A DNA stretch of 64,000 bases from an uncultured Actinomycetota bacterium (lineage in GTDB: Bacteria; Actinomycetota; Actinomycetes; Actinomycetales; Dermatophilaceae), in NCBI GenBank assembly GCA_963709785.1, contig CAVPXT010000007.1, positions 137,613-201,612 of the forward strand. The letters run 5' to 3'. Below are positions 4,748 through 64,000 of this stretch, one piece after another. The notes beneath the pieces were generated by a model. That model did no database searches, was not told the DNA's origin, and saw only the letters and a list, made by a program, of their open reading frames with translations. Made by a program: the position numbers and the translations under genes. The first letter of the stretch is position 1. The number at the start of each line of letters is the position of its first letter.

Positions 4748-4785
4748 CGGGAAGCTCCTGGGTCGGGCGGGACGTGGGGACGACT

Positions 4786-4801: not shown

Positions 4802-4905
4802 GAGGTGGCGATGTGCTCCGACCAGACCGCGCCCACACCGTCCTCCGGGTTTTGTGGCGTCCGCACACATCAGGGGCCGGCGGCGTGCTCCCTAGGGTCC
4901 GAGCC

Positions 4906-15581: not shown

Positions 15582-15593
15582 CCGTCCCTCGTC

Positions 15594-15634
15594 GGACCCC
15601 GCGGCTGGACCCCAGAGGTCCGGCCGCGGGGTCC
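15594..15634. terminator. GC-rich hairpin between convergent genes (18-bp stem, one mismatch)
   Basis: GGACCCCGCGGCTGGACC / CCAGA / GGTCCGGCCGCGGGGTCC, 12 nt after the stop at 15581. Confidence 0.5.
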
Positions 15635-15661
15635 GTGCGTTCAGGGGCGTGGGCGAGGCCC

Positions 15662-17664: not shown

Positions 17665-17838
17665 GCCTCATCGTACCGAACACCTGTTCGAGGCACAAGA
17701 CCCGATCCACACCTGTTCACCTACAGCACAGCGCGTTTCGCCGTCCGTACACGAAGTGACACATTCGTCGAAAGTGGTACGCCCGCAGACGCTCCGGCAG
17801 CGGCGCAGAGGGCCTCCTACAGGTGGCAGGCTGGCCCC

Positions 17839-18894: not shown

Positions 18895-19538
18895 TCGGTC
18901 AGCGCGCCACTCGCCCGGTCCATCCTCGGCCCGTGGGCGGGGAGCAGCCCCAGGACGACTCCCAGAGCGCACGCGGCAGCGTGGTAGTTGCCCGCCACGG
19001 CGATCAGCGCGACCGCGGCGAACATCCCCAGGGCCGGCGCCAGGACCCACCGGCGCGCCATGGACAGAAGGGCGTTCGACGCCACCGCGCAGGTGAGCGC
19101 GAGGGTGGCCATCGAGTTCCCACCACCGTCCGGCTGCCACCTGAGGACGAGCAGGTTGGAGCCGACGACTGCCGCCCAGAAGGTCAGCCACGTCCGGCGT
19201 CCACCCCAGTAGGCGGACGCCGTGGTCACGGCGATCGCGAGGATCACGAGGTTCGAGACGGCACCGAAGAGGTCCCCGTCCTGCACCACGGCACTGGTCA
19301 CGAGCCGCCAGAGCTCGCCCTCGCGGATCCGGCCGACGTCGCGCGCGAGCGCGTCGTAGAGCCCGGGCACGGCGAGCTGGAGGAGCGAGGGCACCGCCAC
19401 GGCGAGCCACAACAGCCCGGCGGCAGCGGACGGCCGCGGAGGGCTGGGCTCCCGGCCACGGGCCGACGCCCGGAGGGCGACCAACGCACCGAGCACCACC
19501 ACGACGTAGAACGCCACTCCGACGACGGTCTGACCCAC
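18891..19538 (-). CDS. rhomboid-family membrane protein
   Basis: GELWRLVTSAVVQ motif, GGGNSMA (GxSG-like) and a later His in a TM helix. GTG at 19538 is preferred because the longer ORF would overlap the upstream gene. Confidence 0.6.
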   Translation of the reverse strand: MGQTVVGVAFYVVVVLGALVALRASARGREPSPPRPSAAAGLLWLAVAVPSLLQLAVPGLYDALARDVGRIREGELWRLVTSAVVQDGDLFGAVSNLVILAIAVTTASAYWGGRRTWLTFWAAVVGSNLLVLRWQPDGGGNSMATLALTCAVASNALLSMARRWVLAPALGMFAAVALIAVAGNYHAAACALGVVLGLLPAHGPRMDRASGALTD

Positions 19539-46631: not shown

Positions 46632-46751
46632 CCCCGTCGGACGCCGTCCGGACCTGTGGACGGGTCGTCGGATGTCGCCGTGGCGACGTACGGTGGGGTG
46701 TTCAGGGTCCGTCCGTGCAGGGACGCCCGTGTGCGTTCGAGGAGGGTGCCC

Positions 46752-49700: not shown

Positions 49701-50054
49701 ACCCGCGACCGCGCCGAGCGGATCGCGGCCTTCCGCGACGGCGACGCCCCGGTGTTCCTCATCTCGCTCAAGGCCGGTGGCTTCGGCCTCACGCTCACCG
49801 AGGCCGACTACGTCTTCGTGCTCGACCCGTGGTGGAACCCGGCCGCCGAGGCCCAGGCCATCGACCGGGCGCACCGCATCGGGCAGACCAAGCCGGTCAA
49901 CGTCTACCGGATGGTGTCGCGGAACACGGTCGAGGAGAAGGTCATCGCCCTCCAGGAACGCAAGCGCGACCTCTTCACGCGCGTCGTCGACGAGGGGGCC
50001 GCGATGAGCCGGGCCCTGAGCGCCGACGACCTGCGCGACCTGCTCTCCGGCTGA
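46752..50054 (+). CDS. SNF2-family helicase with N-terminal SWIM zinc finger
   Basis: AGGAGG RBS 6 nt before GTG at 46752. SWIM CSCPVASDCKHAVAV. SNF2_N LADDMGLGKT and DEAQFVKN. Helicase-C FLISLKAGGFGLTLTEADYVFVLDPWWNPAAEAQAIDRAHRIGQ. Confidence 0.9.
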   Translation: MARVVTAGRLSELTNRELGDVCGTVTVARGLAYARAGRVVDVEVSADGANATGWVGGSSGQTYTTLVALRPHEETGRRALRRWYSQCSCPVASDCKHAVAVAARVRDLAPAPSAPDDPPAPTWERALGGLLDDEAPRDFTPVGLLLESASAGTGRVRVTEDTGRSQLRMRPVVPGVRDAWIRTGVSWESFAGGYYGYGRVTFSDDHIDALTAIADAHRRSVRAYGYGRMPDAILLDHLGPGWVSLLRAADRAGVRLLTDLTGRGEVAFALDPAELVVDIESTPDGAALHPRLDLPGAAGTDTHLVGSPATGFWLRDDDTLVLGALAEPLDATRQRLLDLGTVEVPRADWTRFTVTHLPGLRRKARVRSLAPELELPEAVPPRLHLAVTVEPGHRTHLAWGFRYGGADGVHVALGSEEPDPMRDRAAERGLVEQLRGVPDVADFDALWQVVARQPHLVPEVRFHGFTTVGFSQLLPVLDELPFLDVEVHGEVADYTEVDEAPLIQVSTSDAGGGSGSATDWFDLGISVTVAGEDVPLAPLIEAVARGHEHLILDSGTWFALDRPELETLRRLVEEARSLQDKPSDPLRISAVHVGLWEELAALGVVEEQSARWQRTVGRLVDGGDLPPAEVPVGLDATLRPYQVEGFRWLSLLWDCGLGGVLADDMGLGKTVQMLAMVLRAHERGELDHPVLVIAPTSVLSTWAGEAAHFAPALRTAVIDRTRGKDRRSLAAAIEGAQVVITSYTVARIDEAEWRSREWGAVVLDEAQFVKNHQAKTYQAVRRLSARAKFAITGTPLENSLMDLWSLLSIVAPGLHPKPGAFKEQWATPIERDGDADRLATLRRRIRPLMLRRTKEAVATELPPKQEQVLTVDLHPRHRAVYDRHLQRERQRLLGLIDDLDGNRMAVLRALTALRQMSLDPSLVDEQYAGLAASAKVDALVEHVTELAGEGHRALVFSQFTGFLGIVRERFAAEGIAYEYLDGRTRDRAERIAAFRDGDAPVFLISLKAGGFGLTLTEADYVFVLDPWWNPAAEAQAIDRAHRIGQTKPVNVYRMVSRNTVEEKVIALQERKRDLFTRVVDEGAAMSRALSADDLRDLLSG

Positions 50055-50073
50055 CCGCGCGGTCGGACATCCT

Positions 50074-50125
50074 CCGAACGTGTGTGAACACGCCGGGGAT
50101 CTCCGGCGTGTTCACACACGTTCGG
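50074..50125. terminator. perfect 23-bp inverted repeat (6-nt loop) between convergent genes
   Basis: CCGAACGTGTGTGAACACGCCGG GGATCT CCGGCGTGTTCACACACGTTCGG. Lies between the SNF2 stop (50054) and the fumC stop (50149). Confidence 0.6.
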
Positions 50126-50148
50126 GGAATGGTGCGGTGGATGAGGGG

Positions 50149-51570
50149 TCAGTCGGGGCGGGTCATCGCCTCGGGGTCGACCCAGCGGTCGTAGTCGTCC
50201 TCGGAGACGGCACCGGATGCCACCGCCGCCTCGCGCAGCGTCGAGCCGTCGCGGTGCGCCTGCTTCGCGATGGCCGCCGCCGTGTCGTAGCCGATGTGCG
50301 GGGCCAGTGCGGTGACGAGCATGAGGTCGGCCTCGAGGTGCTCGGCGATCCGCTCGCGGTCGGCCTCCAGCCCGACGACGCAGTGCTCGGTGAACGAGTG
50401 GCACGCGTCGGAGACGAGCCGGATCGACTCCAGCACCGCGTGCGCCATGACCGGCGTGAAGACGTTGAGCTGGAAGTTGCCCTGCGTGCCGGCGAACCCG
50501 ACCGTGGCGTCGTTGCCGAAGACGCGGGTGACGACCATCGTCATCGCCTCGGACTGGGTCGGGTTCACCTTGCCCGGCATGATCGACGATCCCGGCTCGT
50601 TCTCGGGGATGCGCAGCTCGCCGATGCCCGTCCGCGGCCCGGAGGCGAGCCACCGCACGTCGTTCGCGAGCTTCATGAGGCCGCCCGCCAGCGTGCGCAG
50701 GGACGACGACACGGCGACGAGGCCGTCGTGCGCGGCGAGCTGGACGAAGAGGTTGTCGGCCTGGTGGAACGCGAGCCCCGTCTCGGCGGCGAGGTGCTCG
50801 GCCACCTTCGGCCCGAACTCGGCCGGGGCGTTGAGCCCGGTGCCCACGGCCGTCCCGCCGATCGCCAGGGCGAGCACCCGCTGGCCGGCGTACCGCACGT
50901 CGGCCTGGGCCTCGCGCAGCTGACCGGCCCACGCGCCGATCTCCTGCCCGAGCGTCACCGGCGTCGCGTCCTGGAGGTGGGTGCGCCCGACCTTGACGAC
51001 GTCGGCCAGCTCCGCGGCCTTGGCGTCGAGGGCCTCGCAGAGTGCGTCGACCGCGGGGTGCAGCCGTTCGGCCAGCTCGAGGGCCACCGAGACGTGGACC
51101 GCGGTGGGGAAGGTGTCGTTGCTCGACTGGCTCCGGTTGACGTGGTCGTTGGGGTGCACCGGGTCCTTGGACCCCAGCTCGCCCCCGAGGATCTCGATCG
51201 CCCGGTTCGCGACGACCTCGTTGGTGTTCATGTTGCTCTGCGTCCCGGAGCCGGTCTGGAAGACGACGAGCGGGAAGTGGTCGTCGAGGTCGCCCCGGGC
51301 CACCTCGTCCGCGGCGGCGATGACGGCCGGGGCCACCTCCTCGGGGAGCAGGCCGAGCTCGGCGTTGGCCAGCGCCGCCGACTTCTTGAGCAGGCCGAGG
51401 CCGCGGATGACCGCACGCCCCCACACGAAGGTGTCCCGGCCGATGTCGAAGTGCTCGAGGCTGCGCTGGGTCTGCGCCCCCCAGTACCGGTCGGCCGGCA
51501 CCTCCACGGCGCCCATCGTGTCGCTCTCGGTGCGGCTCGCCGCGTCGTCCTGGTCGTGCTGGGTCGTCAT
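50149..51570 (-). CDS. fumC: class II fumarate hydratase
   Basis: ATG at 51570. [30 protein letters not shown] signature. Confidence 0.95.
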
Positions 51571-51723
51571 CCCCCCACGGTATGCCCGGGTCACGACCTC
51601 GACACAGTCGCGTCGCACCCCTCCTCAAGCGAGCACCCTTCTGCGACAATCACCGCCTGCCCATCGCAGCGTCGCGGCCCGGCAGTCGGCTCGCGACGGA
51701 CCGTCCGAGGGAGGATCGAACCG

Positions 51724-52512
51724 TTGCCCGGCACCGAGCGTCCCGACGAGCACCCGGTCGCCCCGACGCTCTGGATGGCCCGGCGCGAGTGGCGCGTCGG
51801 CCTCGAGCTCGCCGCGTCCGCCGTCCGCACCCGCGACCTGCACCAGTGGCCCGTCGGCGACGGCCACCCGGTCATCGTGCTGCCGGGGTTCCTCGCCGGC
51901 CCGGAGTCCACGCTGTTCCTGCGCCAGCACCTGCGCCGGCTCGGGTACCGGACCCACGACTGGCGCCAGGGCCGCAACCTCGGCGCGAGCCCGGAGCTCG
52001 CCGCCCGCCTCGAGGACCTCCTGCTCGAGATCCACGACCGCTACGGCCGACGGGTCAGCCTCATCGGCTGGAGCGCCGGGGGGATCTACGCGCGCGAGAT
52101 GGCGCGGGCCCTGCCCGACTACACCCGCTCGGTCATCACCCTGGGCAGCCCGTTCCGCGGCCACCCCGCCTCGACCCGGGCCTGGGCGATGTACCGCCTC
52201 ATGAACCGGCGGAACCTCGACCTCATGTTCACCGAGGAGGCGCTCGCGATGCGCGCCACCCCCCTGCCGGTGCCCACGACGAGCATCTACTCGCGGTCCG
52301 ACGGCATCGTGGCGTGGCAGTGCTGCGTCTCGGAGCCGGCGCCGCACACCGAGAACGTCGAGGTCAGCGCCACCCACCTCGGGTACGGCCACCACCTCGA
52401 GACGCTGCGGGTCGTCGCCGACCGGCTCGCCCAGCCCGAGGGCTCCTGGACACCCTGGGTGGACGCCGACCCCGGCGCGGACCCGCCGGCCGCCCACGAC
52501 CGGGCGGTCTGA
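51724..52512 (+). CDS. alpha/beta hydrolase (lipase/esterase-like)
   Basis: GWSAGG nucleophile elbow. A TTG at 51724 follows GAGGGAGGA (alternative ATG at 51775). The upstream 548 codons of ORF 50080..52512 are antisense to fumC. Confidence 0.7.
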   Translation: MPGTERPDEHPVAPTLWMARREWRVGLELAASAVRTRDLHQWPVGDGHPVIVLPGFLAGPESTLFLRQHLRRLGYRTHDWRQGRNLGASPELAARLEDLLLEIHDRYGRRVSLIGWSAGGIYAREMARALPDYTRSVITLGSPFRGHPASTRAWAMYRLMNRRNLDLMFTEEALAMRATPLPVPTTSIYSRSDGIVAWQCCVSEPAPHTENVEVSATHLGYGHHLETLRVVADRLAQPEGSWTPWVDADPGADPPAAHDRAV

Positions 52513-52515
52513 CGC

Positions 52516-53916
52516 GTGGCGCGGACCCGCTGGGCCAGCCCGCTCGACTCGATCTTCCTCATGGGGGAGTCCCCCGAGACCCTGATGCACGTGGGCTCGC
52601 TGCTGCACTTCCGCTACCCCGAGGGCGAGGACGAAGGGTTCCTGCGCGACCTCGTGGCCGACGTGCGGTCCGCCCCGGTCGAGCTGCCGTGGACGCTGCG
52701 ACTGCAGACCCGGCGCGCCATGCGTCAGCCCGTGCACCGCTGGGTCGAGGACGACCGCTTCGACGTCGACTACCACGTCCGGCACTCCGCCCTGCCCGCG
52801 CAGGGCGGCGAGCGCGAGCTCGGCATCCTCGTCTCGCGGCTGCACTCGAACCAGATCGACTTCCGGCGACCCCCGTGGGAGGTGCACTTCATCGAGGGGG
52901 TCGGGCCCGGCCAGTTCGCCGTCTACACGAAGATCCACCACAGCCTCGTCGACGGCTACACGGGCACCCGCATCCTGCAGCGCGGCCTCTCCGAGGACCC
53001 CGACGACCGCACGCACCCGCACTTCTACAGCCTCACCAAGCCGCCGCGGGCCGAGGGCGTGCCGCGCGAGCCGGTGGGCGACGTCGCGTCCATCCTCCGG
53101 AGCGTCTCGGCCTCGGTCACGGCGATGCCGGCGGTGGCGCGCTCCATCCTCGGCACCCAGCTGCGGCGCGGCGAGACCACGACGCGCGCGGTGACCTCGT
53201 ACCAGGCGCCGGTCTCGGTGCTCAACGGGCAGACCGGCCGCTCGCGCCGGTTCGCCACCCAGCAGTACGACCTCGAGCGGCTGCGCGCCGTGGCCCGCGC
53301 GAAGAACGCCACCCTCAACGACGTCCTCATGGCGATCTGCGCCGCCGGGCTCCGCCGTTTCCTCGGCGACCTCGACGAGCTGCCGGACCGCCCGCTCATC
53401 GCCTTCGTCCCGGTCAACGTCCGAGCCGCCGACAGCGAGGGGGGCGGCAACTACGTCGGTGCGACGCTCGTCTCGCTCGCGACCGACATCGCCGACCCGG
53501 TCGCCCGCCTGGCCGCCATCGCCTCGTCGTCGCGCGCCGCCAAGGCCCGGATGCGCGGGATGACCGGCGACGGCGTCATCGCGTACAGCGCGATGCTCCT
53601 GGCGCCCGCCGGGCTCCAGGTCGCCCGGGCGATGACCGGGCTGCCGCTGCCCGGCCCGCTCACCCTCAACGTGTGCATCTCGAACGTGCCCGGGCCGACC
53701 AAGCCCCTGTACTGGCGAGGCGCCCGGCTCGAGGCGACGTACCCGGTGTCGATCCCCGGGCACTCCATGGCACTCAACATCACGGCGCAGTCGTACGCGG
53801 GCACGCTGAACCTCGGCTTCATCGGGGACCGTGAGGCGGTGCCACACCTCCAGCGCCTCGCGGTGCACACCGGGGAGGCCCTCGAGGAGCTCGAGGCCGC
53901 CGTCGGCACCGGCTGA
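52516..53916 (+). CDS. wax ester synthase / diacylglycerol acyltransferase (WS/DGAT)
   Basis: Catalytic HHSLVDG motif. 466 aa with the typical WS/DGAT N- and C-terminal domains. Confidence 0.9.
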   Translation: MARTRWASPLDSIFLMGESPETLMHVGSLLHFRYPEGEDEGFLRDLVADVRSAPVELPWTLRLQTRRAMRQPVHRWVEDDRFDVDYHVRHSALPAQGGERELGILVSRLHSNQIDFRRPPWEVHFIEGVGPGQFAVYTKIHHSLVDGYTGTRILQRGLSEDPDDRTHPHFYSLTKPPRAEGVPREPVGDVASILRSVSASVTAMPAVARSILGTQLRRGETTTRAVTSYQAPVSVLNGQTGRSRRFATQQYDLERLRAVARAKNATLNDVLMAICAAGLRRFLGDLDELPDRPLIAFVPVNVRAADSEGGGNYVGATLVSLATDIADPVARLAAIASSSRAAKARMRGMTGDGVIAYSAMLLAPAGLQVARAMTGLPLPGPLTLNVCISNVPGPTKPLYWRGARLEATYPVSIPGHSMALNITAQSYAGTLNLGFIGDREAVPHLQRLAVHTGEALEELEAAVGTG

Positions 53917-53920: not shown

Positions 53921-54343
53921 TCAGCCCTGCGGTGGCTCCCCGCTGCCGAGGTTGACCATCCACGAGATGCCGTACCGGTCGACGAGCTGCCCGTACTCGT
54001 CGCCCCACATCTGCTTCTCGAAGGGCATCGTCACGGTGGCGCCGTCGGCCAGCCCCTCCCAGTAGCGGCGGAGCGCCTCGTCGTCGCCGCTCAGCGAGAC
54101 GTGGACGTTGCTCGGAGCACCCGACCCGCCCTCCATCCCGGGCGGGAGGTCCGAGGCCATGAGGACGAAGCCGTCGTCGGTCTCGAGGTAGGCGTGCATC
54201 ACGCCGTCGGCGCCGGGCCCCTCGGCCCCGTACTGGCCGAAGGTCATGACGTCGAGCCGGCCGCCGAGGACCTGCTGGTAGAAGGTCATCGCCTCGCGGG
54301 CGGCGCCGTCGAAGTTGAGGTACGGGTTGAGTCTGCTCGCCAT
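53921..54343 (-). CDS. VOC/glyoxalase-fold protein (PhnB/YjdN-like)
   Basis: ATG at 54343: MASRLNPYLNFDGAAREAMTFYQQVLGG...QMWGDEYGQLVDRYGISWMVN. Confidence 0.8.
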   Translation of the reverse strand: MASRLNPYLNFDGAAREAMTFYQQVLGGRLDVMTFGQYGAEGPGADGVMHAYLETDDGFVLMASDLPPGMEGGSGAPSNVHVSLSGDDEALRRYWEGLADGATVTMPFEKQMWGDEYGQLVDRYGISWMVNLGSGEPPQG

Positions 54344-54408: not shown

Positions 54409-55218
54409 TCACCGGGGCCGACGCGTCCCTCGGGAGTCCGCGTGCGGGGCCGCGCCCCGCACCGAGTGCCTGCGCCCCGTCCCGGGCCCGGCGACCACCG
54501 CGGCGACCAGGGCGGTGACCTCGGGAGCCGGCGCGACCTCGAGCTCGGACCACAGGACGTCGCGGTAGTGCTCGTAGCGACGGAGCGCCTCGTAGGCGTT
54601 GCCCTCCTCGAGGAGCGCCCGCACCAGGGCGCACAGGGCCGACTGGCGCAGCGGTTCGGCGGTGACCGCAGCCAGCCCGGCCCGGGTGGCGAGACCGAAC
54701 TGGCGGAGCCGGGTCGCACTGCGACACAGCTCCTCCAAGGCCTGGATCCGGGTGAGGTGGAAGGCGTCCTGCTCACCGAGGAGCCATTCCTCGTACCAGC
54801 CGGGGAGGAGGTCCCGCGTGAGCAGGTCCAGCTGGCTGGCGTCCAGGGGAGCGGCGTCGAGCGCGAGGCCCGCGATCCGCCGCGCGTCCACCACGTCCAC
54901 GTCGGCCTCCAGGCGCACCTCCCACGAGCTCGCGGTGACCCACCCCGGCGGGGTCTGCCAGATGGCGCGTCGGAGGTTGGCCCGGGCGCGGGTCTCCAGG
55001 ACCGTCGGCCAGAGCTCCATGCTCATGAGCGAGCGCTGCACCACCGGCCCCCTGACGGCCAGGTAGGCGATCGCACGGCGCGCGGAGGCCGACAGGGGGT
55101 CCTCCGGGACGACCGAGAGCCGCCCGAGGACACACACCTGACGGTGCGAACGCGTACCGGTCACCGGCGGCCCCTCTCGCCGGCCCGTGGTGGGGACGGC
55201 GTCGACGTGGCAAACCAT
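54409..55218 (-). CDS. SARP-family (AfsR/DnrI/RedD-like) transcriptional activator: OmpR-type wHTH + BTAD
   Basis: VCVLGRLSV..., ARRAIAYLAVRG, LLPGWYEEWLLGEQDAFHLTRIQALEELC, ALVRALLEEGNAYEALRRYEHYRDVLWSELEVAP (BTAD). Start is the ATG at 55218 or the GTG at 55164. Confidence 0.75.
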   Translation of the reverse strand: MVCHVDAVPTTGRREGPPVTGTRSHRQVCVLGRLSVVPEDPLSASARRAIAYLAVRGPVVQRSLMSMELWPTVLETRARANLRRAIWQTPPGWVTASSWEVRLEADVDVVDARRIAGLALDAAPLDASQLDLLTRDLLPGWYEEWLLGEQDAFHLTRIQALEELCRSATRLRQFGLATRAGLAAVTAEPLRQSALCALVRALLEEGNAYEALRRYEHYRDVLWSELEVAPAPEVTALVAAVVAGPGTGRRHSVRGAAPHADSRGTRRPR

Positions 55219-55463
55219 TCGGGGACGTCCGGGAAGTATCCCGGACCTCCGGGGGCCCTGCAAACGCGTTGTCCCGGCGGGGACGCCCGGGGGTACACCG
55301 CGACGACGCCGAGGGGACGCGACGGTGCCCGCCCGGGGACCCACGCGGCCACCCGGGACGACGCCCAGGAGGGGCCGCCGAGCACGGGTGCTGCCACGGG
55401 TGCGGCTACGGGGGCCGCGGACGATGGTCGGTGTTCTGCTCACCACGGACCCCGGAGGGACCC

Positions 55464-57962
55464 ATGCCGGACATCCAGTCGACGGCCCTGCTCACCGCCA
55501 TGCCGGAGACGCCCTTCGCCGACCACGACGTGCACGACGCCCACGCCGAGGGCGGCCCGGAGACCATCGGGCTGCTTCCCTGGACGGAGGCGCCCTCACC
55601 GTTCGCCGGCGGGGTCGCCGGGCTCGAGCTCGAGGACGAGCAGACCGAGCTGTTCCTCGAGGCCTTCGAGGAGCTGCGCGACGAGGCCTTCGACGACTCC
55701 CTCGCCGAGCTCGTCGCCGAGACCTCCGAGGCCGCCGGGATCCAGGTGCACGGGGAGCAGCCGGACGCCTTCGGGGCCCAGCGCCAGCGACTGGCCGAGG
55801 CGCACCTCGAACCGGTCGTCACCGAGGCGGAGCGCTGCGTGCAGCGGCTCATCGAGCACGTCGGCCACGTCGACCCCTCGTCGATCTCGGAGGACGAGCT
55901 CGAGAGCCTGCTCGAGCGCTTCGACCCCGGGCAGGCGACGGTGTCCCCGGCGGGCGAGCAGTTCCTCGGCGGCCTGATCAAGAAGGTCAAGGGCGTCGTC
56001 AAGAAGGTCGTCAAGGTCGCGAAGAAGGTCGTCAGCAAGATCCCGTTCCTCGGCGCGATCCTCAAGAAGATCAAGTCCCTCATCAAGCCCTTGCTCAAGC
56101 GCGTCCTCGGGATGGCGATCGGACGCCTCCCCGCCGCCCTGCAGCAGCCGGCGCGCGACCTCGCCAGGAAGATCGGCATCGGCGAGCTCGAGGACGAGTC
56201 CTTCGACGAGCTCGAGGACGAGGCCGAGGAGGAGACCCTCGCCGAGGACTTCGCCGGGTCGCCCGTCCAGGTCCTGGACCCGGAGACCCTCGGGGAGTCC
56301 TTCGACGCCGCGCTCGCGGGTGCCCTGGTCTCCCCCGAGTCGCTCGAGGAGGGCGAGGCCTTCGGCCACGACGAGGGACCGGACCTGCCGATGGGGACCG
56401 AGCTCGAGCAGCTGGCCGCCGCCCGCGGGCGCTTCATGAACCGGGTCCGCGACGCCGGCGACGGGGACGACCTCGGCCCGGCGATGGAGCAGTTCATCCC
56501 GGCGATCCTCCCCGCGCTGCGTCTGGGGCTGCGGCTCATCGGCCGCACCAAGGTCGTCAACTTCCTCGCGAAGTACCTCGCGAAGCTCATCGGCAAGTGG
56601 GTCGGACCCCAGCTCTCGGTCCCGCTGTCTCGGGCCGTGGTCGACGTCGGCCTGCGGGTCATCGGGCTGGAGCACGACGGGACCGGCGAGCTCGAGGCCG
56701 AGGCCGTCCCGGCGATGCTCGCGACGACCGTGGAGGACACCGTCCGGCGGCTCGCTGAACAGCCCGACCACGTCCTCGAGGACGAGGGGCTGCTCCAGGT
56801 CGCCGTGGCCGAGGCCTTCGAGCAGTCCGTGGCTGCGAACTTCCCCGCGACCCTCGTCCGCCCCGACCTGCGGCTGGCGCCCTCCCTCGGCGGGACGTTC
56901 GTCACCCGGCACGCGCGGACGCCGCACGCGTACAAGAAGTTCTCCCGCACCCCCGAGATCGACCTCTCACCGGCGCAGGCCGCCGCCATCCGCACCTTCG
57001 GGGGCGTGACGCTCGACGCCGCGCTCCGCGCCCACGGCATCACCCTCCCCGGACGGTTCCGGGTCCAGGTCTTCGAGGCGGGGTCCGGGACCACGCTGCC
57101 GACCCTCGCCCGCCTCGAGGGCATCGTCGGGCCGAGCGGGACGCACGGTGCCTACAGCCACCTCCACCCCCTGACCCGCGCCAACGCGACCGCCCTGCTG
57201 CGCGAGCCCCGGCTCGGGGTCGACGTGCCCTCCCGCTTCCTCCAGTCCCGGCACAGGATCTCGGTGGGCGAGCGGTTCTTCCACCTCCAGCCCGTCGGGC
57301 AGCGCCCGGCACCCCGACCGGCCCCGACGCGGGAGTCCCCGTCGTGCGACCCCGGGACGCCGAGCGACCGGCGGATGCGCATCGACCTGCGCCGCGGCGA
57401 GGCGCGGATCGCGCTCTACTTCTCGGAGCCGGACGCCCAGAAGGTGGCGGCATCGGTCGGCTCCGACCCGACGAACCCGGCCCTGCTCAAGGCGCTCATG
57501 GAGGCGCTGCGAGCCGCCGGCCGCTCGGTCGGGCGCAGCGACGGGGCGGTGCAGATCCCCGCGGGAGCGCCGGCGGACAGTGCCGCGTCCCCCGGCGGCA
57601 CCGCCGCTCCGCCCACGGGCGGCGACGGCCAGTCCGAGTGGGAGGCCGAGTGGGAGGCCCAGTGGGAGGCGGAGTGGGAGCGCCGCTCCCGGACCCGCCG
57701 GCGGGCACACCACCGCCGCAGCCACCGGGTCTCCCCCGGCCAGCGGGCGAAGCTCCGGCGACGGATCAAGGCGGCGGCCGCCACGGCGCTCTCCGCGTGG
57801 GCACGCACCGGCGGCCAGGAGTTCGTCCGCGCGGCCCAGGACGCCCAGTGCGGGGTCACGGTCCGGATCCGGGTCACGGGCCTCGGCGGCCGGGGCTCGG
57901 GGGGCACCGGGCCCGGTGGCGCGGCCGCCGTCAGCGTGGCTCCGGGCCGGAGCCGGCCGTGA
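55464..57962 (+). CDS. large hypothetical protein (832 aa): acidic N-region, Lys-rich amphipathic core, acidic region, globular C-part, EWEA repeats, Arg-rich tail
   Basis: ATG at 55464 preceded by GGAGGGA. Coding-like codon bias throughout. No family recognised. Confidence 0.7.
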   Translation: MPDIQSTALLTAMPETPFADHDVHDAHAEGGPETIGLLPWTEAPSPFAGGVAGLELEDEQTELFLEAFEELRDEAFDDSLAELVAETSEAAGIQVHGEQPDAFGAQRQRLAEAHLEPVVTEAERCVQRLIEHVGHVDPSSISEDELESLLERFDPGQATVSPAGEQFLGGLIKKVKGVVKKVVKVAKKVVSKIPFLGAILKKIKSLIKPLLKRVLGMAIGRLPAALQQPARDLARKIGIGELEDESFDELEDEAEEETLAEDFAGSPVQVLDPETLGESFDAALAGALVSPESLEEGEAFGHDEGPDLPMGTELEQLAAARGRFMNRVRDAGDGDDLGPAMEQFIPAILPALRLGLRLIGRTKVVNFLAKYLAKLIGKWVGPQLSVPLSRAVVDVGLRVIGLEHDGTGELEAEAVPAMLATTVEDTVRRLAEQPDHVLEDEGLLQVAVAEAFEQSVAANFPATLVRPDLRLAPSLGGTFVTRHARTPHAYKKFSRTPEIDLSPAQAAAIRTFGGVTLDAALRAHGITLPGRFRVQVFEAGSGTTLPTLARLEGIVGPSGTHGAYSHLHPLTRANATALLREPRLGVDVPSRFLQSRHRISVGERFFHLQPVGQRPAPRPAPTRESPSCDPGTPSDRRMRIDLRRGEARIALYFSEPDAQKVAASVGSDPTNPALLKALMEALRAAGRSVGRSDGAVQIPAGAPADSAASPGGTAAPPTGGDGQSEWEAEWEAQWEAEWERRSRTRRRAHHRRSHRVSPGQRAKLRRRIKAAAATALSAWARTGGQEFVRAAQDAQCGVTVRIRVTGLGGRGSGGTGPGGAAAVSVAPGRSRP
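57636..57683 (+). repeat. 4 x 12-bp in-frame tandem repeat GAGTGGGAGGCC (EWEA EWEA QWEA EWER)
   Basis: Read directly from the sequence, inside CDS 55464..57962. Confidence 0.9.
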
Positions 57963-59200
57963 GCACCGCGCTCGTCGACGACCTCGAGCGCCAGGTCCAG
58001 CACTGGCTGGGCTCGGCCCGCGGGTGCCTCGACGCCGAGTCGTTCGCGTCCAAGCCGGCGTGGGAGTCGGTCGAGCACGCCGTCGGGCTCCCGGTGCGGA
58101 CCCAGCTGGCCCGCACCGTCGACGAGCTGATCCGGGTGGGCAGGTCGGCCGAGTCCGCGGTGCGCGCCGCGCGCACGCAGCCGGGCGCGGTCCCGGGGGC
58201 GCAGGCCGCGGTCGAGCGCTTCCGGCGCCGCTACCTCCAGGTCGAGACGACACTCGACTTCTTCGGCCAGGCGGTCAACTCCCGGACGAGCCGGCGGCTC
58301 AGCTCGACGATGACGACCCTGGACCGGCTCGCGCACCAGAGCATCGACGCGTCGCTCGGTCAGGTCGGCATCGTCGTGCCACCGGTGCTCACGTACATCG
58401 GGGAGGGGCTCGGTGCGAGCATCATCCGCGTCGGGATCCGCCTGTGGGCGCCGGGCACGGTCAATCCCGTGGCCGCCATCAAGGTGGTGCGGCACAACCT
58501 GTTCCGTCCGACCTCCCTCTTCCACGAGACCGGGCACCAGGTGGCCCACCTCACCGGGTGGAACGAGGCGCTGCGCGAGACGCTCGGGCGCGAGCTGGCC
58601 GACGACCCCGCGCTGCGCGCGATGTGGCAGCCGTGGAGCAGCGAGATCGCCGCCGACGTCTACGCGTTCGTGCTCACGGGCTACGCCTCGGTGGCGGCCC
58701 TGCACGACGTCGTCGCGGACTCGCGCACCATCCTGCGCTGGCCGCTCGGGGACCCCCACCCCGTCGGCTGGCTGCGCGTCCTGCTCGGGGTCGCGATGTG
58801 CCGGGCGAGCTTCGGCCCCGGCCCCTGGGACCGGCTGGAGGAGGCCGTCGTCGCCGCGAACCCGTTGAGCCGGGCCGAGGAGTCGACCGCGCCGCTGCTG
58901 CGTCGCTCGCACGACCGGATGGACCGGGTCGCCCGGGCCTGCCTCGCCTCGCCCGTCCCCGGTTTCGGGGGGCGCCCGGTGCCCTCGGTCCTGGACCCGC
59001 AGCGGGTCTCACCCCGGGCTCTCGGCGAGCTCGAACGCAGCGCCGGTGCGGCCCTGTGGACCTCGCCGCACTGGCGACAGGCGGAAGGCATCCGCATCGT
59101 CGCCCTCGCCGGCCTCCGTGAGGCCGAGCACCCCGATCGCGCCGGCCAGTGGGTCGAGCGTGCCGAGTCCTGGTTCACCGACACCGCACGCGCGGCGTGA
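57959..59200 (+). CDS. hypothetical protein with HExxH zinc-metallopeptidase-like motif
   Basis: GTG at 57959 overlaps the upstream stop (GTGA). LFHETGHQVAHLTGW at 58523..58537, with downstream SSEIAADVYAF. Confidence 0.7.
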   Translation: MSTALVDDLERQVQHWLGSARGCLDAESFASKPAWESVEHAVGLPVRTQLARTVDELIRVGRSAESAVRAARTQPGAVPGAQAAVERFRRRYLQVETTLDFFGQAVNSRTSRRLSSTMTTLDRLAHQSIDASLGQVGIVVPPVLTYIGEGLGASIIRVGIRLWAPGTVNPVAAIKVVRHNLFRPTSLFHETGHQVAHLTGWNEALRETLGRELADDPALRAMWQPWSSEIAADVYAFVLTGYASVAALHDVVADSRTILRWPLGDPHPVGWLRVLLGVAMCRASFGPGPWDRLEEAVVAANPLSRAEESTAPLLRRSHDRMDRVARACLASPVPGFGGRPVPSVLDPQRVSPRALGELERSAGAALWTSPHWRQAEGIRIVALAGLREAEHPDRAGQWVERAESWFTDTARAA

Positions 59201-59217
59201 CCCGAGAGGAGAGTCCC

Positions 59218-59649
59218 GTGGCCAACGAGAGACCGACCGTCAGCAGCCTGGACCAGCGGATGGGCGGGGTGGAACAGCAGCTGGGCGGACTCGCCGAGTC
59301 CATCGGCCGCGTCCAGGAGTCCCTCCACGTCCTCAGCGAGGGCAGCACCGCCCAGTCCGACCGGCTGTGGAGTGCCCTCGGCAGCCTCGGAGGGCTCGAC
59401 GGCATCGCCGGCGGTCTGGCCGAGATCGCCGAGGTGCTCGCCCCGATGCGCCAGTTCGCGCCGCCGTCGACGGCGCTGCCCCTCGAGCCGGGAGTCGCCC
59501 GCGCGGTCGGGCGGATCCGCCGATCGCTCGGAGGTGACCGACGCGAGCTGAACTTCCAGAAGCTCGTCACCCGGTGGGACGGGCCGGTGCCCGTCATCGG
59601 ACAGGCCCGACCCCGCCGCCACCGCCACGACACCGACGGAGAGGGATGA
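59218..59649 (+). CDS. hypothetical protein (143 aa), helical/coiled-coil-like
   Basis: GTG at 59218 after GAGAGGAGAG. Sequence begins SLDQRMGGVEQQLGGLAESIGRVQESLHVL. Confidence 0.55.
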   Translation: MANERPTVSSLDQRMGGVEQQLGGLAESIGRVQESLHVLSEGSTAQSDRLWSALGSLGGLDGIAGGLAEIAEVLAPMRQFAPPSTALPLEPGVARAVGRIRRSLGGDRRELNFQKLVTRWDGPVPVIGQARPRRHRHDTDGEG

Positions 59650-59653
59650 GGAC

Positions 59654-60844
59654 ATGATTCCCCAGCTCGTGCAGCAGATCGCCGACCAGATCGGCAGCGG
59701 CGACCCGCTCGCGGACCTCCAGGTCGCCCAGGCCGAGATCCTGACGTCCGACCCGCTCGACCTCGTCCTGCGGGCGGAGCAGGTGTGGAACGACGCCGAC
59801 GTCTGGGACCAGGGCCAGCCGCCGGCCGGTCCCGCGCGGACGGCCCTCATCGACACCAACGCCTTCGCGACCGGTGAGTGGACCACCCCGCCGAACCCGC
59901 CGCTGCCCATCCCGACCGGCCCGCAACCCGCCTGGGACCACCTGGTCTACGCGTACGCCATCGAGAACACCCGCGCACCGCAGATCCTCGCCCGCGTCGT
60001 GCGCGCCTTCCGCAGCGGCGAGGGGCTCGGGGTCCCCTCGGTCGCGACACAGCGCTGGCTCGACGCGACCGAGGCGCTGCTCTTCGGTGCCACGAACCCG
60101 TTCGCGGCGTGGCTCTCGACGAGCGGCGTGCGCCCGGACGCCGAGGCGGTCCGCCGCAACGCGTACTTCCGCCTCTTCGGGATGGACCTCGCGCACGGGA
60201 CCGACGGCAACGCGCCCTACCCCTACGACAAGGCCGAGGCGTCCAACCGTGGGTTCGTCAAGGTCTTCGAGGAGCTCCTCTTCGAGCTGTGGCGGGCGAT
60301 CGAGAACGTGCGGAACCTCGTCGCGGGCAACACGACCGACGACGACCGCATCTACCGCCTCGCCGAGCAGCTGGGCTTCATGCTGCGGTCCCGCCGCCTC
60401 CAGGCGATCCTCGGTCGCGAGGAGCTCGCCGCGACGACGGCGATGGGGTGGGTGGAGCTCACCGTCAGCTCCAACACGTCCGTCGTGACGGACCTGCGCG
60501 CCGAGGCCACGAGCGCGGCTGACCGGCTGCGGGTCATCGGTGAACGCGTCCGGCTGATGCCGCACTCACGGGCCGGGTCGTTCTTCTCCATGGCGACCGA
60601 GCTGTCCCTCCTGCTGCGGGCCCTCGAGGCCGGCTGGGTGACGGGGAACGGCCAGGCGTGGCTGCTGTACCAGACGACCGCCCCGGGCGGAACGCCTCCG
60701 CTGCCGCCCGGCCAGCGCCCGCTGGGCGCCGAGGTGCGGCGCATCATCACCGAGTGGGCCGCCGCCTCGGGCCGTGACCTCAAGCAGCGGGCCGTGCCCA
60801 TCACGGTCGTCCCCGGCGCGCTGGCCGCCCCGGCCACGCGGTGA
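59654..60844 (+). CDS. hypothetical protein (396 aa)
   Basis: ATG 4 nt after the preceding stop. Coding-like composition. No recognised domain. Confidence 0.7.
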   Translation: MIPQLVQQIADQIGSGDPLADLQVAQAEILTSDPLDLVLRAEQVWNDADVWDQGQPPAGPARTALIDTNAFATGEWTTPPNPPLPIPTGPQPAWDHLVYAYAIENTRAPQILARVVRAFRSGEGLGVPSVATQRWLDATEALLFGATNPFAAWLSTSGVRPDAEAVRRNAYFRLFGMDLAHGTDGNAPYPYDKAEASNRGFVKVFEELLFELWRAIENVRNLVAGNTTDDDRIYRLAEQLGFMLRSRRLQAILGREELAATTAMGWVELTVSSNTSVVTDLRAEATSAADRLRVIGERVRLMPHSRAGSFFSMATELSLLLRALEAGWVTGNGQAWLLYQTTAPGGTPPLPPGQRPLGAEVRRIITEWAAASGRDLKQRAVPITVVPGALAAPATR

Positions 60845-60856
60845 GCGGGGTGCGCG

Positions 60857-61801
60857 ATGACGGACCTCGAGACGCCGTGGGCCACCCCTGACGGGGTCCC
60901 GGGCGAGGCGGAGTGGATCGGTGAGGACCCGTTCACGCAGGGCGGGGCGGGCTTCACCGAGGAGTCGTGGGCCGACGCGCCGACAGTGGAGCGGCCCGCC
61001 GGAGAGCGGTGGCAGGAGTCCCCCTTCGAGACCCCCGTGGAGGGGTTCCTCGAGGAAGGCACCGGGCAGTGGGAGTCGTTCGCGGACAACGCCGTCGGGG
61101 TCACGACCGAGGCCGAGAGCGTCCCCGGCTGTGGGGGACCCGTCAGCGGAGCCCCGCCGCTCATCTACCGCACCTCGTGGGCGGCCCGGTCCCGCACCCC
61201 GTGGGTCGGGCGGGCCCAGACGTTGCTCAACGTCTTCCTCGCCCAGCAGCGGGCCGGCACCGAGAGCTGCACCGACCAGAGCGCCGCGACACGGGCCTAC
61301 ATCGCCTCGCTGCGCGCCCGGCTGGCGCCGCTCGGGCAGGATCCCCTCGGTGTCGACTGCATCTTCGGGGAGGGCACCGAAGTGGCCACCCTGATGTTCC
61401 AGGCCTGCCGCGGCCTGCTGCGCGACGGCAAGATCGGCGAGAAGACCTGGCCCCCGCTGCTCGCCCTCGGCACGACGCCGGTCCCCACGCCCGCCCCGAC
61501 CCCCACGCCCCGACCCCGGCCCCGTCCGGTGTCCGGGTGCGCGAGGACGTCTGGACGCTCAGTGCCGCGAACCCCTGGCACCCGACGATCCTCTGGTACG
61601 CGCGGGGCGTCGCAGCGCTCCAGGCACGAGATGGCCGGAACGCCGCCGACCCGCGGTCCTGGCGGCACCTGGCAGACACGCACGGCACATCGAAACGTCG
61701 CAACACCTGGCCCTCTGGTGCCCTGTGGAACCAGTGCGAGCACGAGAGCTGGCACTTCCTCCCGTGGCACCGCGGCTACCTGCACCACTTCGAGAAGCTG
61801 A
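60857..61801 (+). CDS. acidic N-region + peptidoglycan-binding (PG_binding_1) domain + Pro/Thr linker. The reading frame probably should continue into the tyrosinase (frame break near 61510)
   Basis: LGVDCIFGEGTEVATLMFQACRGLLRDGKIGEKTWPPL matches the PGBD repeat pattern. After TPVPTPAPTPTP the frame degenerates to an Arg/Ser/Gly-rich tail overlapping the tyrosinase frame. Confidence 0.6.
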   Translation: MTDLETPWATPDGVPGEAEWIGEDPFTQGGAGFTEESWADAPTVERPAGERWQESPFETPVEGFLEEGTGQWESFADNAVGVTTEAESVPGCGGPVSGAPPLIYRTSWAARSRTPWVGRAQTLLNVFLAQQRAGTESCTDQSAATRAYIASLRARLAPLGQDPLGVDCIFGEGTEVATLMFQACRGLLRDGKIGEKTWPPLLALGTTPVPTPAPTPTPRPRPRPVSGCARTSGRSVPRTPGTRRSSGTRGASQRSRHEMAGTPPTRGPGGTWQTRTAHRNVATPGPLVPCGTSASTRAGTSSRGTAATCTTSRS

Positions 61802-62991
61802 TCCGGGCCGAGATCACCCGCCTCGGCGGACCGGGGGACTGGGCGCTGCCCTTCTGGAACTACAGCGACACCAGCCGGCCCGACGTCCTGACCATCCCCC
61901 CGGCCTTCCGCCAGCGACGAACGCCCGACGGGCAGCCCAACCCCCTGCACGTGGCGCGGCGGGCCCGAGGCATCAACGATGGTGCGCCGATGTCCACCCT
62001 CGCCGTCCGGACCAGCACGATGTTCGGCGAACCGGCCTTCACCCCTCCGGCCGGTCTCGGCGGTGGGTTCGGTGGGGTCCGCGCACCGCTCGGCACGCAC
62101 GGGAACGGCCGTGGTGCCGACCGTGGCAGCCTCGAGAACGCCCCCCACGGCCTGGTCCACGGTCAGGTGGGCGGGTCGGGAGTCACACCGGGACTGATGT
62201 CGAGGTTCGAGACCGCGGCCCAGGACCCGATCTTCTGGCTCCACCACGCCAATGTCGACCGCCTGTGGGAGGCGTGGCTGCGCACCGCGAGTCACCGGAA
62301 CCCCACCGAGACGGGGTGGCTGGACGGGCACTGGACGTTCGGTTCGGGGCCCGCGGTCACGACCACGACGGTCTCGACACGCCAGATGATCGACCCCCGG
62401 CAGCAGCCGCTGGGGTATCGCTACTCGGACATGGCGTCCACACCGACTCCCGAAGCCGAGTGGTTCGCGGAGGTCGATGCGGGAGCACCGCATCTCGAAC
62501 AGCTCCCACCCGAGCTCGTCGGGACGTCGGAGGGCGAGATCTCCCTCGGGCCGCGCGTGATCACGACCCGGGTCGCGCTCCGTCGTCCGGTAGGGCCGGT
62601 CGCGCATCGGCTCGACGAGTCGACCGGGGTCCCGACGGGCTCCACGGTCTTCCTCCGCCTCGAGAACGTCACCGCGACGGTGGTCCACAGCAGTGGTGTC
62701 GTGGTCTACCTCAACATCCCTCGCGGTGGTCGCCCGGCGGACTTCCCGGACCGCGAGGCCGGTGTCCTCAGCCTCTTCGGGGTCATCGAGGCCTCGCAGC
62801 GCACCGACCAGCACGACGGGACCGGCAGCACGATGACCATGAACGTCACCCGCGTGGCGCGGGCACTGGCCGCCTCGGGGCAGTGGGACCCGACCACGGT
62901 CGATGTCACCTTCGTGCCCATCCCGGATGCCGCAGGCGTGGTCGAGCAGGGCGACGTGAAGGTCGGCCGGGTCAGCGTGTTCTACGCATGA
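61537..62991 (+). CDS. tyrosinase / polyphenol oxidase (type-3 copper) with C-terminal beta-rich domain
   Basis: CuA HESWHFLPWHRGYLHHFE. CuB HGLVHGQVGG...DPIFWLHHANVDRLW. GTG at 61537 is the first in-frame start. The same frame upstream reads PTPAPSG, continuing the linker of 60857. Confidence 0.8.
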   Translation: MREDVWTLSAANPWHPTILWYARGVAALQARDGRNAADPRSWRHLADTHGTSKRRNTWPSGALWNQCEHESWHFLPWHRGYLHHFEKLIRAEITRLGGPGDWALPFWNYSDTSRPDVLTIPPAFRQRRTPDGQPNPLHVARRARGINDGAPMSTLAVRTSTMFGEPAFTPPAGLGGGFGGVRAPLGTHGNGRGADRGSLENAPHGLVHGQVGGSGVTPGLMSRFETAAQDPIFWLHHANVDRLWEAWLRTASHRNPTETGWLDGHWTFGSGPAVTTTTVSTRQMIDPRQQPLGYRYSDMASTPTPEAEWFAEVDAGAPHLEQLPPELVGTSEGEISLGPRVITTRVALRRPVGPVAHRLDESTGVPTGSTVFLRLENVTATVVHSSGVVVYLNIPRGGRPADFPDREAGVLSLFGVIEASQRTDQHDGTGSTMTMNVTRVARALAASGQWDPTTVDVTFVPIPDAAGVVEQGDVKVGRVSVFYA

Positions 62992-63755
62992 CCCTCGCCC
63001 CGACGACCACAGCGCCCGCATCGCTGGTCCGGGTGCACTGGCACCACCCCGAGTGGGTGGTGGTGGCGGTGGCAGCGGGCGCGTGGCTCGGGCTCCTCGC
63101 CCCGGTCGCGGCGGACCCCACCGTGCTCCTGCGGGGGTCGCACCACCTCGGGATCGGCGGCGCGCTCGGGCCTGCCGCCGTGATGGCCGCCGCGATGATG
63201 GCACCGCTCGTGCTCGCCCCGGCCCACGAGCTCGCGGTGTCCAGCCTGTGGCAGCGCCGCTACCTGGCGGTGGTCGTCCACCTCACCGGGTACCTCGCCG
63301 TCTGGACCCTCGTCGGCCTGGTGATGATGACCGGGCTGCACCTCGCACGGGGATGGGTCGGGACCCTTCCCACCGTCGCGGCCGCGGGCGCGGCGGCCGT
63401 CGTGGTGGCGGGGACGGAGGACCACCGGCGCCGGCTCCGGCGCTGCGGCGCGTCGCGTCCGCTGTCCCTCACCGGGTGGCGGGCCGACCGGGACTGCCTC
63501 GACGCTGGGGTACGGCTGGCTGGGCGGTGCGTGGCGACGACGTGGGCGCTGATGCTCGCGCTGATGGCGCAGGGCGGTCTCGTCGTGCTCGCCAGCGGCA
63601 CGGTGCTGATGGTCGCCGAGCGCCGCGGCCTCGTCCCCGACCGACGGCTCGTCCGCTGGACCGTGGCGCTCACCGTGCTCGCCCTCCTCGTGACCGCCGG
63701 CAGCGTCGGCTCGGGGTCGCTCGACGGAGCACCCGTGGACCCCCACGCCCACTGA
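62988..63755 (+). CDS. DUF2182-type predicted metal-binding integral membrane protein
   Basis: ATGA overlap with the tyrosinase stop. Multi-TM with conserved His/Cys/Met (HWHHPEW, MMAP, RRCG, DCL). Confidence 0.7.
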   Translation: MTLAPTTTAPASLVRVHWHHPEWVVVAVAAGAWLGLLAPVAADPTVLLRGSHHLGIGGALGPAAVMAAAMMAPLVLAPAHELAVSSLWQRRYLAVVVHLTGYLAVWTLVGLVMMTGLHLARGWVGTLPTVAAAGAAAVVVAGTEDHRRRLRRCGASRPLSLTGWRADRDCLDAGVRLAGRCVATTWALMLALMAQGGLVVLASGTVLMVAERRGLVPDRRLVRWTVALTVLALLVTAGSVGSGSLDGAPVDPHAH

Positions 63756-63803
63756 CTCGGGCGGGGCGTTGCCACGGGGCGCCGGGCGGTGGACGATCGT
63801 CAC

Positions 63804-64000
63804 GTGAGGACCCCGTACGAGGCCGCCGGTGGCGCCGAGGGCATGCTCGCCCTCTCCCGCGCGTGGTTGGCCCGCTGCCTCGCCGACCCGGTCGCCGCCC
63901 ACCCCTTCGAGCACCACGGGCACCCGCAGCACAGCGAGCGGCTCGCCGCGTACTGGGGGGAGGCCCTCGGCGGGCCGTCGACGTACACCGACACCATGGG
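63804..64000 (+). CDS. truncated-hemoglobin-like (group II globin) protein, N-terminal part only
   Basis: VRTPYEAAGGAEGMLALSRAWLARCLADPVAAHPFEHHGHPQHSERLAAYWGEALGGPSTY. Runs off the window. Alternative GTG at 63789. Confidence 0.55.
   Translation, partial: MRTPYEAAGGAEGMLALSRAWLARCLADPVAAHPFEHHGHPQHSERLAAYWGEALGGPSTYTDTM

Follow-up and report, generated by a model that had tools for sequence, protein, structure and literature searches.

A conserved cassette of four orphan genes is followed by interchangeable, wall-directed cargo in several bacterial phyla

A 64,000-nucleotide (nt) stretch of DNA from an uncultured Dermatophilaceae bacterium (contig CAVPXT010000007.1), referred to as the window, ends in a regulatory gene and an operon facing it, in which four genes for orphan proteins precede a gene for a peptidoglycan-binding tyrosinase. 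The four orphan genes, termed here the A-B-C-D cassette, and the exchangeable enzyme gene behind them, termed the cargo, are the subject of this analysis. As the window DNA has a GC content of about 73%, genes were called by frame analysis of third-position GC (GC3), which supported genes R (regulator), A-D (orphans), E (peptidoglycan-binding domain and tyrosinase), F (PpoB2) and G (globin). Their products, given in amino acids (aa), and the features of the region are as follows:

54409-55218, minus strand: R, a SARP-like regulator of 269 aa (Pfam BTAD).
55219-55463: divergent promoter region between R and A, with GGAC boxes.
55464-57962, plus strand: A, a mosaic protein of 832 aa, no family match.
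57959-59200, plus strand: B, a predicted zinc metallopeptidase of 413 aa with a HExxH motif.
59218-59649, plus strand: C, a small helical protein of 143 aa, no family match.
59654-60844, plus strand: D, an all-alpha protein of 396 aa, no family match; the most diagnostic gene of the cassette.
60857-62991, plus strand: E, the cargo gene, frame-broken in the window (Pfam PG_binding_1, Tyrosinase and DUF7868).
62988-63755, plus strand: F, a PpoB2 membrane copper chaperone of 255 aa (Pfam PpoB2, formerly DUF2182).
63804-64000, plus strand: G, the 5' part of a truncated-haemoglobin gene that ends at the window edge (Pfam Bac_globin).

The coordinates and GC3 frames agreed with the products named in a preliminary description of this DNA (an 832-aa mosaic protein, a HExxH protein and proteins of 143 and 396 aa), and the junctions it had listed all proved correct on re-reading. 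The start of B overlaps the stop of A in the GTGA at 57959, gaps of 17, 4 and 12 nt separate B from C, C from D and D from E, the start of F overlaps the stop of E in the ATGA at 62988, and the globin gene starts 33 or 48 nt past F. Good ribosome-binding sites were found at A, C and D. A 19-residue hydropathy scan of R, A, B, C, D and E revealed no hydrophobic (signal- or transmembrane-like) segment, in line with the earlier statement that the soluble products carry no Sec or Tat signal, and the same property gave about six hydrophobic segments in F. No core gene for a polyketide synthase, non-ribosomal peptide synthetase, terpene or ribosomally synthesized and post-translationally modified peptide (RiPP) is present, again as described. 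A scan for promoter and terminator consensus sequences found nothing and is uninformative in DNA of 73% GC.

The order A-B-C-D was found to be kept in about 55 loci from Actinomycetota, Proteobacteria, Myxococcota, Chloroflexota and Desulfobacterota, which establishes it as a conserved unit and not a chance neighbourhood. Locus entries were numbered L001-L064. Across the 52 genome loci that D had recovered, a tblastn search located R, A and B upstream of it in an unchanged order (entries L001-L053, of which L002 and L046 are one site of Phycicoccus HDW14). Homologs of D occur in Bradyrhizobium, Rhizobium, Sphingomonas, Methylobacterium, Lysobacter, Luteibacter, Cupriavidus, Pararobbsia, Labilithrix and a metagenome-assembled genome (MAG) of Chloroflexia. 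The D proteins of Proteobacteria, Labilithrix and Chloroflexia share 47-62% identity with D of the window, and B is about 60% identical elsewhere. Independent gene calls gave the same six-gene layout in Bradyrhizobium, Phycicoccus, Leifsonia and a strain labelled 'Bacillus sp. NP157', and the flanking genes differ between these four loci. The cassette has probably spread horizontally; a tblastn search with D against 50,697 phage records and a plasmid collection gave no match. Of the longer order A-B-C-D-tyrosinase-DUF2182 put forward in the preliminary description, the A-B-C-D part holds across phyla, whereas tyrosinase and PpoB2 follow it only in the window's clade. Because divergent arrays vary in both regulator and cargo, A-B-C-D is regarded as the invariant core and the other two as add-ons. 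The divergent arrays are listed below:

L057, Streptomyces: no regulator; a 618-aa unknown protein after D.
L058, Desulfonatronum: no regulator; no large cargo after D.
L059, Nocardia: no regulator, a caspase-like gene upstream; a P450 after D, probably unrelated.
L060, metagenome: GerE regulator; VanY cargo after D.
L061, metagenome: no regulator; no cargo after D.
L064, metagenome: GerE regulator; VanY and YkuD_2 cargo after D.

The caspase-like gene of L059 (Nocardia niwae) lies at 3377-5542, just upstream of A-B-C-D, and encodes a Peptidase_C14 protein of 721 aa.

In nearly every locus, a large open reading frame (ORF) of 600-2100 aa starts 10-40 nt past D. Pfam analysis of 45 such E proteins identified PG_binding_1 (23 proteins), VanY (17), PG_binding_3 (12), Glucosaminidase (10), Tyrosinase with DUF7868 (9), Peptidase_M15_3 (9), DUF2272 (8), Aspzincin_M35 (7), Peptidase_M15_4 (5), OmpA, PG_binding_2 and others. 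One E protein combines an Aspzincin, a VanY, two peptidoglycan-binding domains and a glucosaminidase. The module had been suggested to be envelope-directed, and this part of the earlier proposal is borne out by the E slot of the 45 loci, where PG_binding_1/2/3, VanY, Peptidase_M15, glucosaminidase, DUF2272, Aspzincin and OmpA domains are carried. Tyrosinase and PpoB2 were found only in L002-L012 and L048, which come from Phycicoccus-like genomes, Pedococcus, Mumia, Gordonia and MAGs, and a PpoB2 gene accompanies every tyrosinase-type E and no other type. An extra NlpC/P60 gene of about 300 aa follows the cargo in loci of Lysobacter, Cupriavidus and Pararobbsia (L032, L033, L037, L038 and L051; 14643-15554 in L037). 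The genes after E vary (PpoB2, NlpC/P60, an opposite-strand gene or none), and no small gene shared among them that might confer immunity was noticed, this point not having been tested systematically. Some loci, such as L058 and L061, contain the core without adjacent cargo.

A and E were shown, at the level of their sequences, to share an N-terminal E-x-P-F(A) motif with acidic sequence after it. Overall identity among the E proteins is only 12%, whereas a Pro-Phe pair close to their N-terminus reaches at least 90% conservation. It belongs to the consensus [FLY]Dx[LWF]G[LF]ExPFA, often with a second ESPF or ESPYAEA and acidic repeats behind it; about half of the E proteins have two copies of the motif. 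The pattern [ED]xP[FY] falls within the first 80 residues of 43 of the 45 E proteins, and elsewhere in them occurs 19 times in 45,646 residues (about 0.4 per 1000). In 30 of 35 A homologs it lies at residues 14-26, with no occurrence elsewhere in 25,497 residues. A of the window carries ETPFAD and SPF (E15-T-P-F-A-D at 55506-55523; W40...S-P-F47 at 55581-55604), and the acidic leader of its E carries EDPF and ESPF (E23-D-P-F at 60923-60934; E54-S-P-F at 61016-61027). At 15582-19028, L037 encodes a further cargo protein with the motif, in which DUF7800 and PhoD-like domains were identified.

The four cassette proteins could not be placed in a family, as had been noted before. Comparison of A-D with Pfam, NCBIfam, PADLOC and PHROGs returned only noise (HemX, E 0.005; ZorG, E 0.0024; tape-measure, E 0.024), the ZorG hit on the N-terminal helices of B (E 0.0024) being the sole faint match of PADLOC v2 to the cassette. 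Sequence and profile searches of the PDB with D, B, A and the catalytic core of B gave chance matches only, and confident structural models of B and D were without a structural neighbour. For A, 371 homologs of about 800 aa were detected, all hypothetical. A is conserved along its whole length. Its most conserved blocks are two cationic amphipathic segments flanked by acidic blocks (residues 161-235, 55944-56168; residues 341-400, 56484-56663), with hydrophobic moments of 0.63-0.71 and a net charge of +7 to +8 per 18 residues, and a further conserved block covers residues 420-690 approximately. A role of A as a precursor of variable antimicrobial peptides was rejected, since the cationic segments are the most conserved and not the most variable parts. 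Residues 724-739 (57633-57680) form a tryptophan-acidic repeat, EWEAEWEAQWEAEWE; such repeats were also observed in cargo leaders, as TEWGE five times in L012 and as PWTE in L018, at the N-termini of E.

B, with 1931 homologs detected, carries H189-E-T-G-H193 at 58523-58537 and E229 at 58643-58645. The sequences RPTSLFHExGHQ and SEIxAD, the latter 36 residues past H193, were invariant in 43 homologs, as were H189, E190, H193 and E229. An AlphaFold2 model of B (predicted local distance difference test, pLDDT, 89.6; predicted template modelling score, pTM, 0.91) contains in order an N-terminal helical bundle, three strands (143-177), the HExxH helix (185-199) and the helix of E229 (217-240). This is the order of secondary structure expected of a gluzincin, and by its model B is a predicted zincin. 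Pfam found no peptidase family in the 43 B homologs at E 5, nor did NCBIfam in B, and the best Foldseek match in the PDB had an E value of 0.23 (BepA: E 2.0, TM-score 0.18), profile searches of the PDB being empty. One UniRef record names a B homolog 'IrrE N-terminal-like domain-containing'. The C slot holds an ORF of 76-203 aa in nearly all loci, mostly overlapping the start of D by 4 nt, and a weak motif, NGFxE...LxPLRxLxPP, is common to these ORFs. D has 457 detected homologs, all "hypothetical", and an exhaustive profile search found 567 clusters at 50% identity. An alignment of 55 D sequences contains 63 invariant columns, mostly of charged residues. The AlphaFold2 model of D is a confident all-alpha fold (pLDDT 87.1, pTM 0.87) for which Foldseek found no neighbour in the PDB (best E 0.77) or BFVD (best E 0.55), with TM-scores below 0.2. 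A terpene-synthase-like reading of its DDD motif was rejected, as matches to the prenyl synthase fold had E values above 1 and TM-scores of about 0.1.

R had been called a SARP/BTAD activator divergent from the operon. The BTAD domain was confirmed at residues 143-241 (Pfam PF03704, E 1.1e-13, 52.2 bits against a cut-off of 22.1) and was likewise matched in the four R homologs tested. However, the winged helix, Trans_reg_C, was not reported by Pfam in R or in these homologs even at E 10, and a PDB sequence search with R alone gave no match. The N-terminal 100 aa or so show a pattern (LGRL..., RRxLAYLA, LWP, RANLRRAxW), conserved in all homologs, that resembles the winged helix-turn-helix sequence of SARPs. 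SARPs typically control secondary-metabolite clusters. Homologs of R adjoin A in 48 of the 53 entries L001-L053. The divergent arrangement is true of the window but limited to its wider actinobacterial group; the regulator gene is the first, co-directional gene in about 30 loci, and in divergent clades it is absent or replaced by GerE.

In the divergent promoter region, GGAC occurs at 55221, 55279, 55313 and 55335, with repeated (C/G)GGAC boxes. The window and L002-L008 share a GGAC(G/C)ATGGTCGGTG element about 45 nt upstream of the start codon of A, and an AGTATC(C/G)CGGAC element is conserved near the start of R. In the window and seven relatives, the sequences preceding A contain 66 close GGAC pairs against 6.3 in shuffled sequences (about 10-fold), with dominant spacings of 11 nt (12 pairs), 22 nt (7 pairs) and 33 nt. 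GGAC repeats phased at 11 nt are the pattern expected for SARP sites, and R is predicted to bind them.

E of the window comprises a PG_binding_1 domain (61301-61450), a (TP)n linker (about 61474-61530), a tyrosinase domain (about 61537-62300; PF00264, E 3e-32) and a C-terminal DUF7868 (62509-62985; E 2.8e-32). In translation, both type-3 copper motifs are intact, CuA as WHFLPWHRGYLHHFE and CuB as HGLVH...DPIFWLHHANVDRLW. The peptidoglycan-binding domain, linker and tyrosinase had been taken for a single ORF, a claim that does not hold in the window: the frames of the peptidoglycan-binding part (from 60857) and of the tyrosinase (to 62991) differ by one base, and the break lies within the linker, at an extra CG (61506-61507) relative to the ENA contig ERZ25039549:contig_38599. 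This contig is 99.875% identical to the last 12 kb of the window and contains an intact E of 710 aa, and E is a single ORF of 688-719 aa in relatives L003-L012; the break in the gene of the window therefore reflects a very recent frameshift or, alternatively, an error of assembly. Separate translation of the tyrosinase from the GTG at 61537 was rejected, as this codon has no ribosome-binding site and the relatives have one ORF.

F matched Pfam PpoB2 (PF09948, 55.2 bits against a cut-off of 28.7). Its earlier designation as a DUF2182 metal-binding membrane protein stands as to the match and the hydrophobic segments, with the family now renamed PpoB2, a tyrosinase copper chaperone. In Marinomonas mediterranea, PpoB2 transfers copper to the tyrosinase PpoB1 (PMC2855505). 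G is complete in the near-identical contig (146 aa; L062, 15844-16284) and is cut solely by the edge of the window. Apart from a damaged copy in Phycicoccus HDW14, the globin gene is found only in the window's lineage. It had been counted in the operon; as it is not conserved, it was rejected as a cassette member and is considered a local neighbour.

On the other side of R, at a distance of 65 nt downstream and on the same strand, lies a VOC/PhnB-like gene (53921-54343, minus strand) with matches to 3-dmu-9_3-mt and Glyoxalase. The gene call of the near-identical contig makes it 163 aa long and overlapping the stop of R by 4 nt, and its conservation is confined to the closest relatives (L002 and L004). 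Upstream of the cassette, 46632-53916 encodes an SNF2-family helicase, a fumarase (minus strand), an alpha/beta-hydrolase-like ORF and a WS/DGAT acyltransferase; these neighbours are syntenic with Phycicoccus HDW14 and not related to the cassette.

Tentatively, and with slightly more doubt than belief, we read the region as one copy of an undescribed, horizontally spread cassette, a module switched on by its regulator and licensed by a protease, whose task is to handle or release an enzyme directed to the wall. R would activate the A-F operon through the 11-nt-phased GGAC repeats, and A and E would be made as cytoplasmic clients marked by their common E-x-P-F motif. The metallopeptidase B, partnered by C and D, would recognise and probably trim the acidic N-terminal regions of A and E. 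Trimming may unmask the cationic helices of A, by which the membrane would be breached from inside, so that the signal-less cargo could reach the wall and dock through its peptidoglycan-binding domain. In the window, the docked cargo would be a PpoB2-loaded tyrosinase oxidising phenolic or tyrosyl substrates at the wall, F having been added to this cassette because its cargo is a tyrosinase; in most other loci it would be a set of murein hydrolases. Such a model would explain both the missing secretion component and function in monoderm as well as diderm hosts. The ecological role could be autolysis or release, antagonism, or defence. The stronger proposal, that A-B-C-D is a release or lysis machine independent of envelope architecture, in which E-x-P-F(A) clients and a zincin-licensed breacher deliver wall enzymes in monoderms and diderms alike, is a real possibility that we consider doubtful.

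Several observations weigh against this proposed mechanism. A lone D-like gene, without A, B and C, is present at 9001-10149 of L063 (profile E 5e-96); its neighbours there are GH20, GH2, beta-lactamase-family, peptidase S15 and PAP2 genes. The loci with a core and no cargo mean that cargo delivery may not be the primary job of the core. Frame breaks interrupt the cargo gene in the window as well as in Phycicoccus sp. HDW14, in the latter at a different position, within the tyrosinase domain, and a tyrosinase is an odd cargo for a model of the lysis type. The putative membrane activity of A draws on composition, and its hydrophobic moment was attained by 26 to 45 of 1000 shuffled sequences. 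As no profile or fold matched B, its assignment as a peptidase draws on motif and topology only, and its cleavage of A or E is likewise a prediction from sequence. The role of D is left unexplained by the model.

The preliminary description had suggested an oxidative cross-linking, melanising or antagonistic module; in a dedicated operon of the first two kinds, all six genes would serve to make, activate and place a tyrosinase on the wall under SARP control. Tyrosinase, PpoB2 and peptidoglycan-binding domain do co-occur and are translationally coupled, and B could open a tyrosinase zymogen, many tyrosinases being zymogens opened by proteolysis. However, a tyrosinase is present in only 9 of 45 loci and confined to the window's clade, and elsewhere the same A-B-C-D core precedes murein hydrolases or no cargo. 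As the tyrosinase does not define the module, the module was not built for cross-linking or melanisation; the cargo survey largely excludes this explanation, which we judge very improbable. Hardly credible as well is a cryptic RiPP-like or protein-modifying cluster, with D modifying the E-x-P-F region of A and E, B acting as leader peptidase and a SARP as regulator. The usual association of SARPs with secondary-metabolite clusters, the more than 60 invariant and mostly charged residues of D, which are enzyme-like, and the resemblance of the motif to a leader recognition sequence would fit it, but 'precursors' 700-2100 aa long that contain folded enzymatic domains speak against it, as do the lack of any known maturase, transporter or immunity gene and a regulator that is GerE or absent in divergent clades.

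Non-lytic export of antibacterial enzymes, in which an A-D device would read the E-x-P-F signal and secrete effectors against competitors, is unlikely but has more in its favour: a conserved N-terminal signal is joined to variable C-terminal warheads, some loci have extra E copies, lytic or predatory genera (Lysobacter and Labilithrix, for example) are among the hosts, and four Cys residues in the peptidoglycan-binding region hint at an extracytoplasmic destination. Nevertheless, the cassette contains no transmembrane protein, ATPase or known secretion component, a consistent immunity gene after E was not seen (without a systematic test), and the occurrence of one cassette in monoderm and diderm hosts is hard to reconcile with an envelope-spanning machine. 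Quite improbable in our estimate is antiphage abortive infection or programmed death, with B sensing infection and unleashing A and E to kill the cell. The sporadic distribution across phyla resembles horizontal gene transfer, and a protease beside a putative membrane-active protein recalls the logic of gasdermins and their proteases; in addition, one locus adjoins Cas6 and IS21 and another has the caspase-like Peptidase_C14 gene upstream. On the other hand, PADLOC gave no model match, the Phycicoccus locus is syntenic and chromosomal with metabolic neighbours, a dedicated transcription activator is unusual for fast-acting defence effectors, and the collections of phages and plasmids contained no match to D.

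No description of the A-B-C-D cassette was found in full-text searches of the literature, and the cassette as a whole appears to be new, its cargo and PpoB2 being of known kinds. Four families with hundreds to thousands of members were without annotation, Pfam model or structural neighbour, and these orphans are 50-60% identical between Actinomycetota and Proteobacteria in a fixed gene order. Such conservation, together with a swappable wall enzyme and a common N-terminal motif, points to a real, undescribed molecular machine. For annotation, the "orphans" become a recognisable cassette. If signal-less murein hydrolases are indeed released or activated by it, the cassette would represent a new bacterial route for moving proteins to the wall, or for lysing. 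Large multi-domain lytic enzymes could then be drawn from it, and the short motif might be usable as a portable targeting tag. As a release or lysis machine independent of envelope architecture, A-B-C-D would form a class of its own beside holin-endolysin and the numbered secretion systems; it would comprise more than 500 sequence clusters and span at least five phyla. To our knowledge, a tyrosinase as modular cargo in such a system would be the first known case.

Among known systems, the proposed B peptidase can be compared with ImmA/IrrE (M78), which are minimal gluzincins. In both, the HExxH helix follows a small sheet, and a Glu, in SEIxADxxAF of B, lies on the next helix. Unlike ImmA/IrrE, B matches no peptidase model of Pfam or NCBIfam and no solved zincin structure, and has an N-terminal helical bundle of 135 residues and a long helical C-terminal domain. 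R and its promoter region resemble SARP clusters in that a small BTAD regulator adjoins its putative target operon, with direct repeats phased at 11 nt upstream. In contrast to SARP clusters, there is no biosynthetic core, the proteobacterial homologs of R are encoded by the first gene of the operon, and the winged helix-turn-helix is undetected by Pfam.

Polymorphic toxins and effectors, a concept reportedly set out by Zhang, Aravind and colleagues in 2012, likewise combine a short conserved N-terminus with swappable C-terminal enzymes, extra cargo copies and transfer across phyla. The N-terminus of the cassette proteins differs from theirs in containing no trafficking domain known to Pfam and no hydrophobic segment, an immunity gene was not noticed here (without a systematic test), the warheads are mostly murein hydrolases or tyrosinase and not nucleases or deaminases, and the cargo is joined by four conserved proteins that belong to no known family. 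As in holin-endolysin or 'type 10' secretion, signal-less peptidoglycan hydrolases with peptidoglycan-binding domains must cross the cytoplasmic membrane, and a membrane lesion would therefore be needed. Unlike holin-endolysin systems, the cassette has no holin or spanin (R and A-E are without transmembrane segments) and is not phage-borne, its cargo reaches 2100 aa with several catalytic domains, and an activator and a metallopeptidase belong to the unit.

The cargo of the window itself has its closest parallel in ppoB1-ppoB2 of Marinomonas mediterranea, where a signal-less tyrosinase gene is likewise followed directly by that of a copper-loading membrane protein of the PpoB2/COG5486 type (PMC2855505). 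Compared with PpoB1, the tyrosinase of the window possesses in addition an acidic leader, a peptidoglycan-binding domain, a linker of (TP)n type and DUF7868 at its C-terminus, and, unlike the Marinomonas pair, it occupies the cargo slot of a larger cassette.

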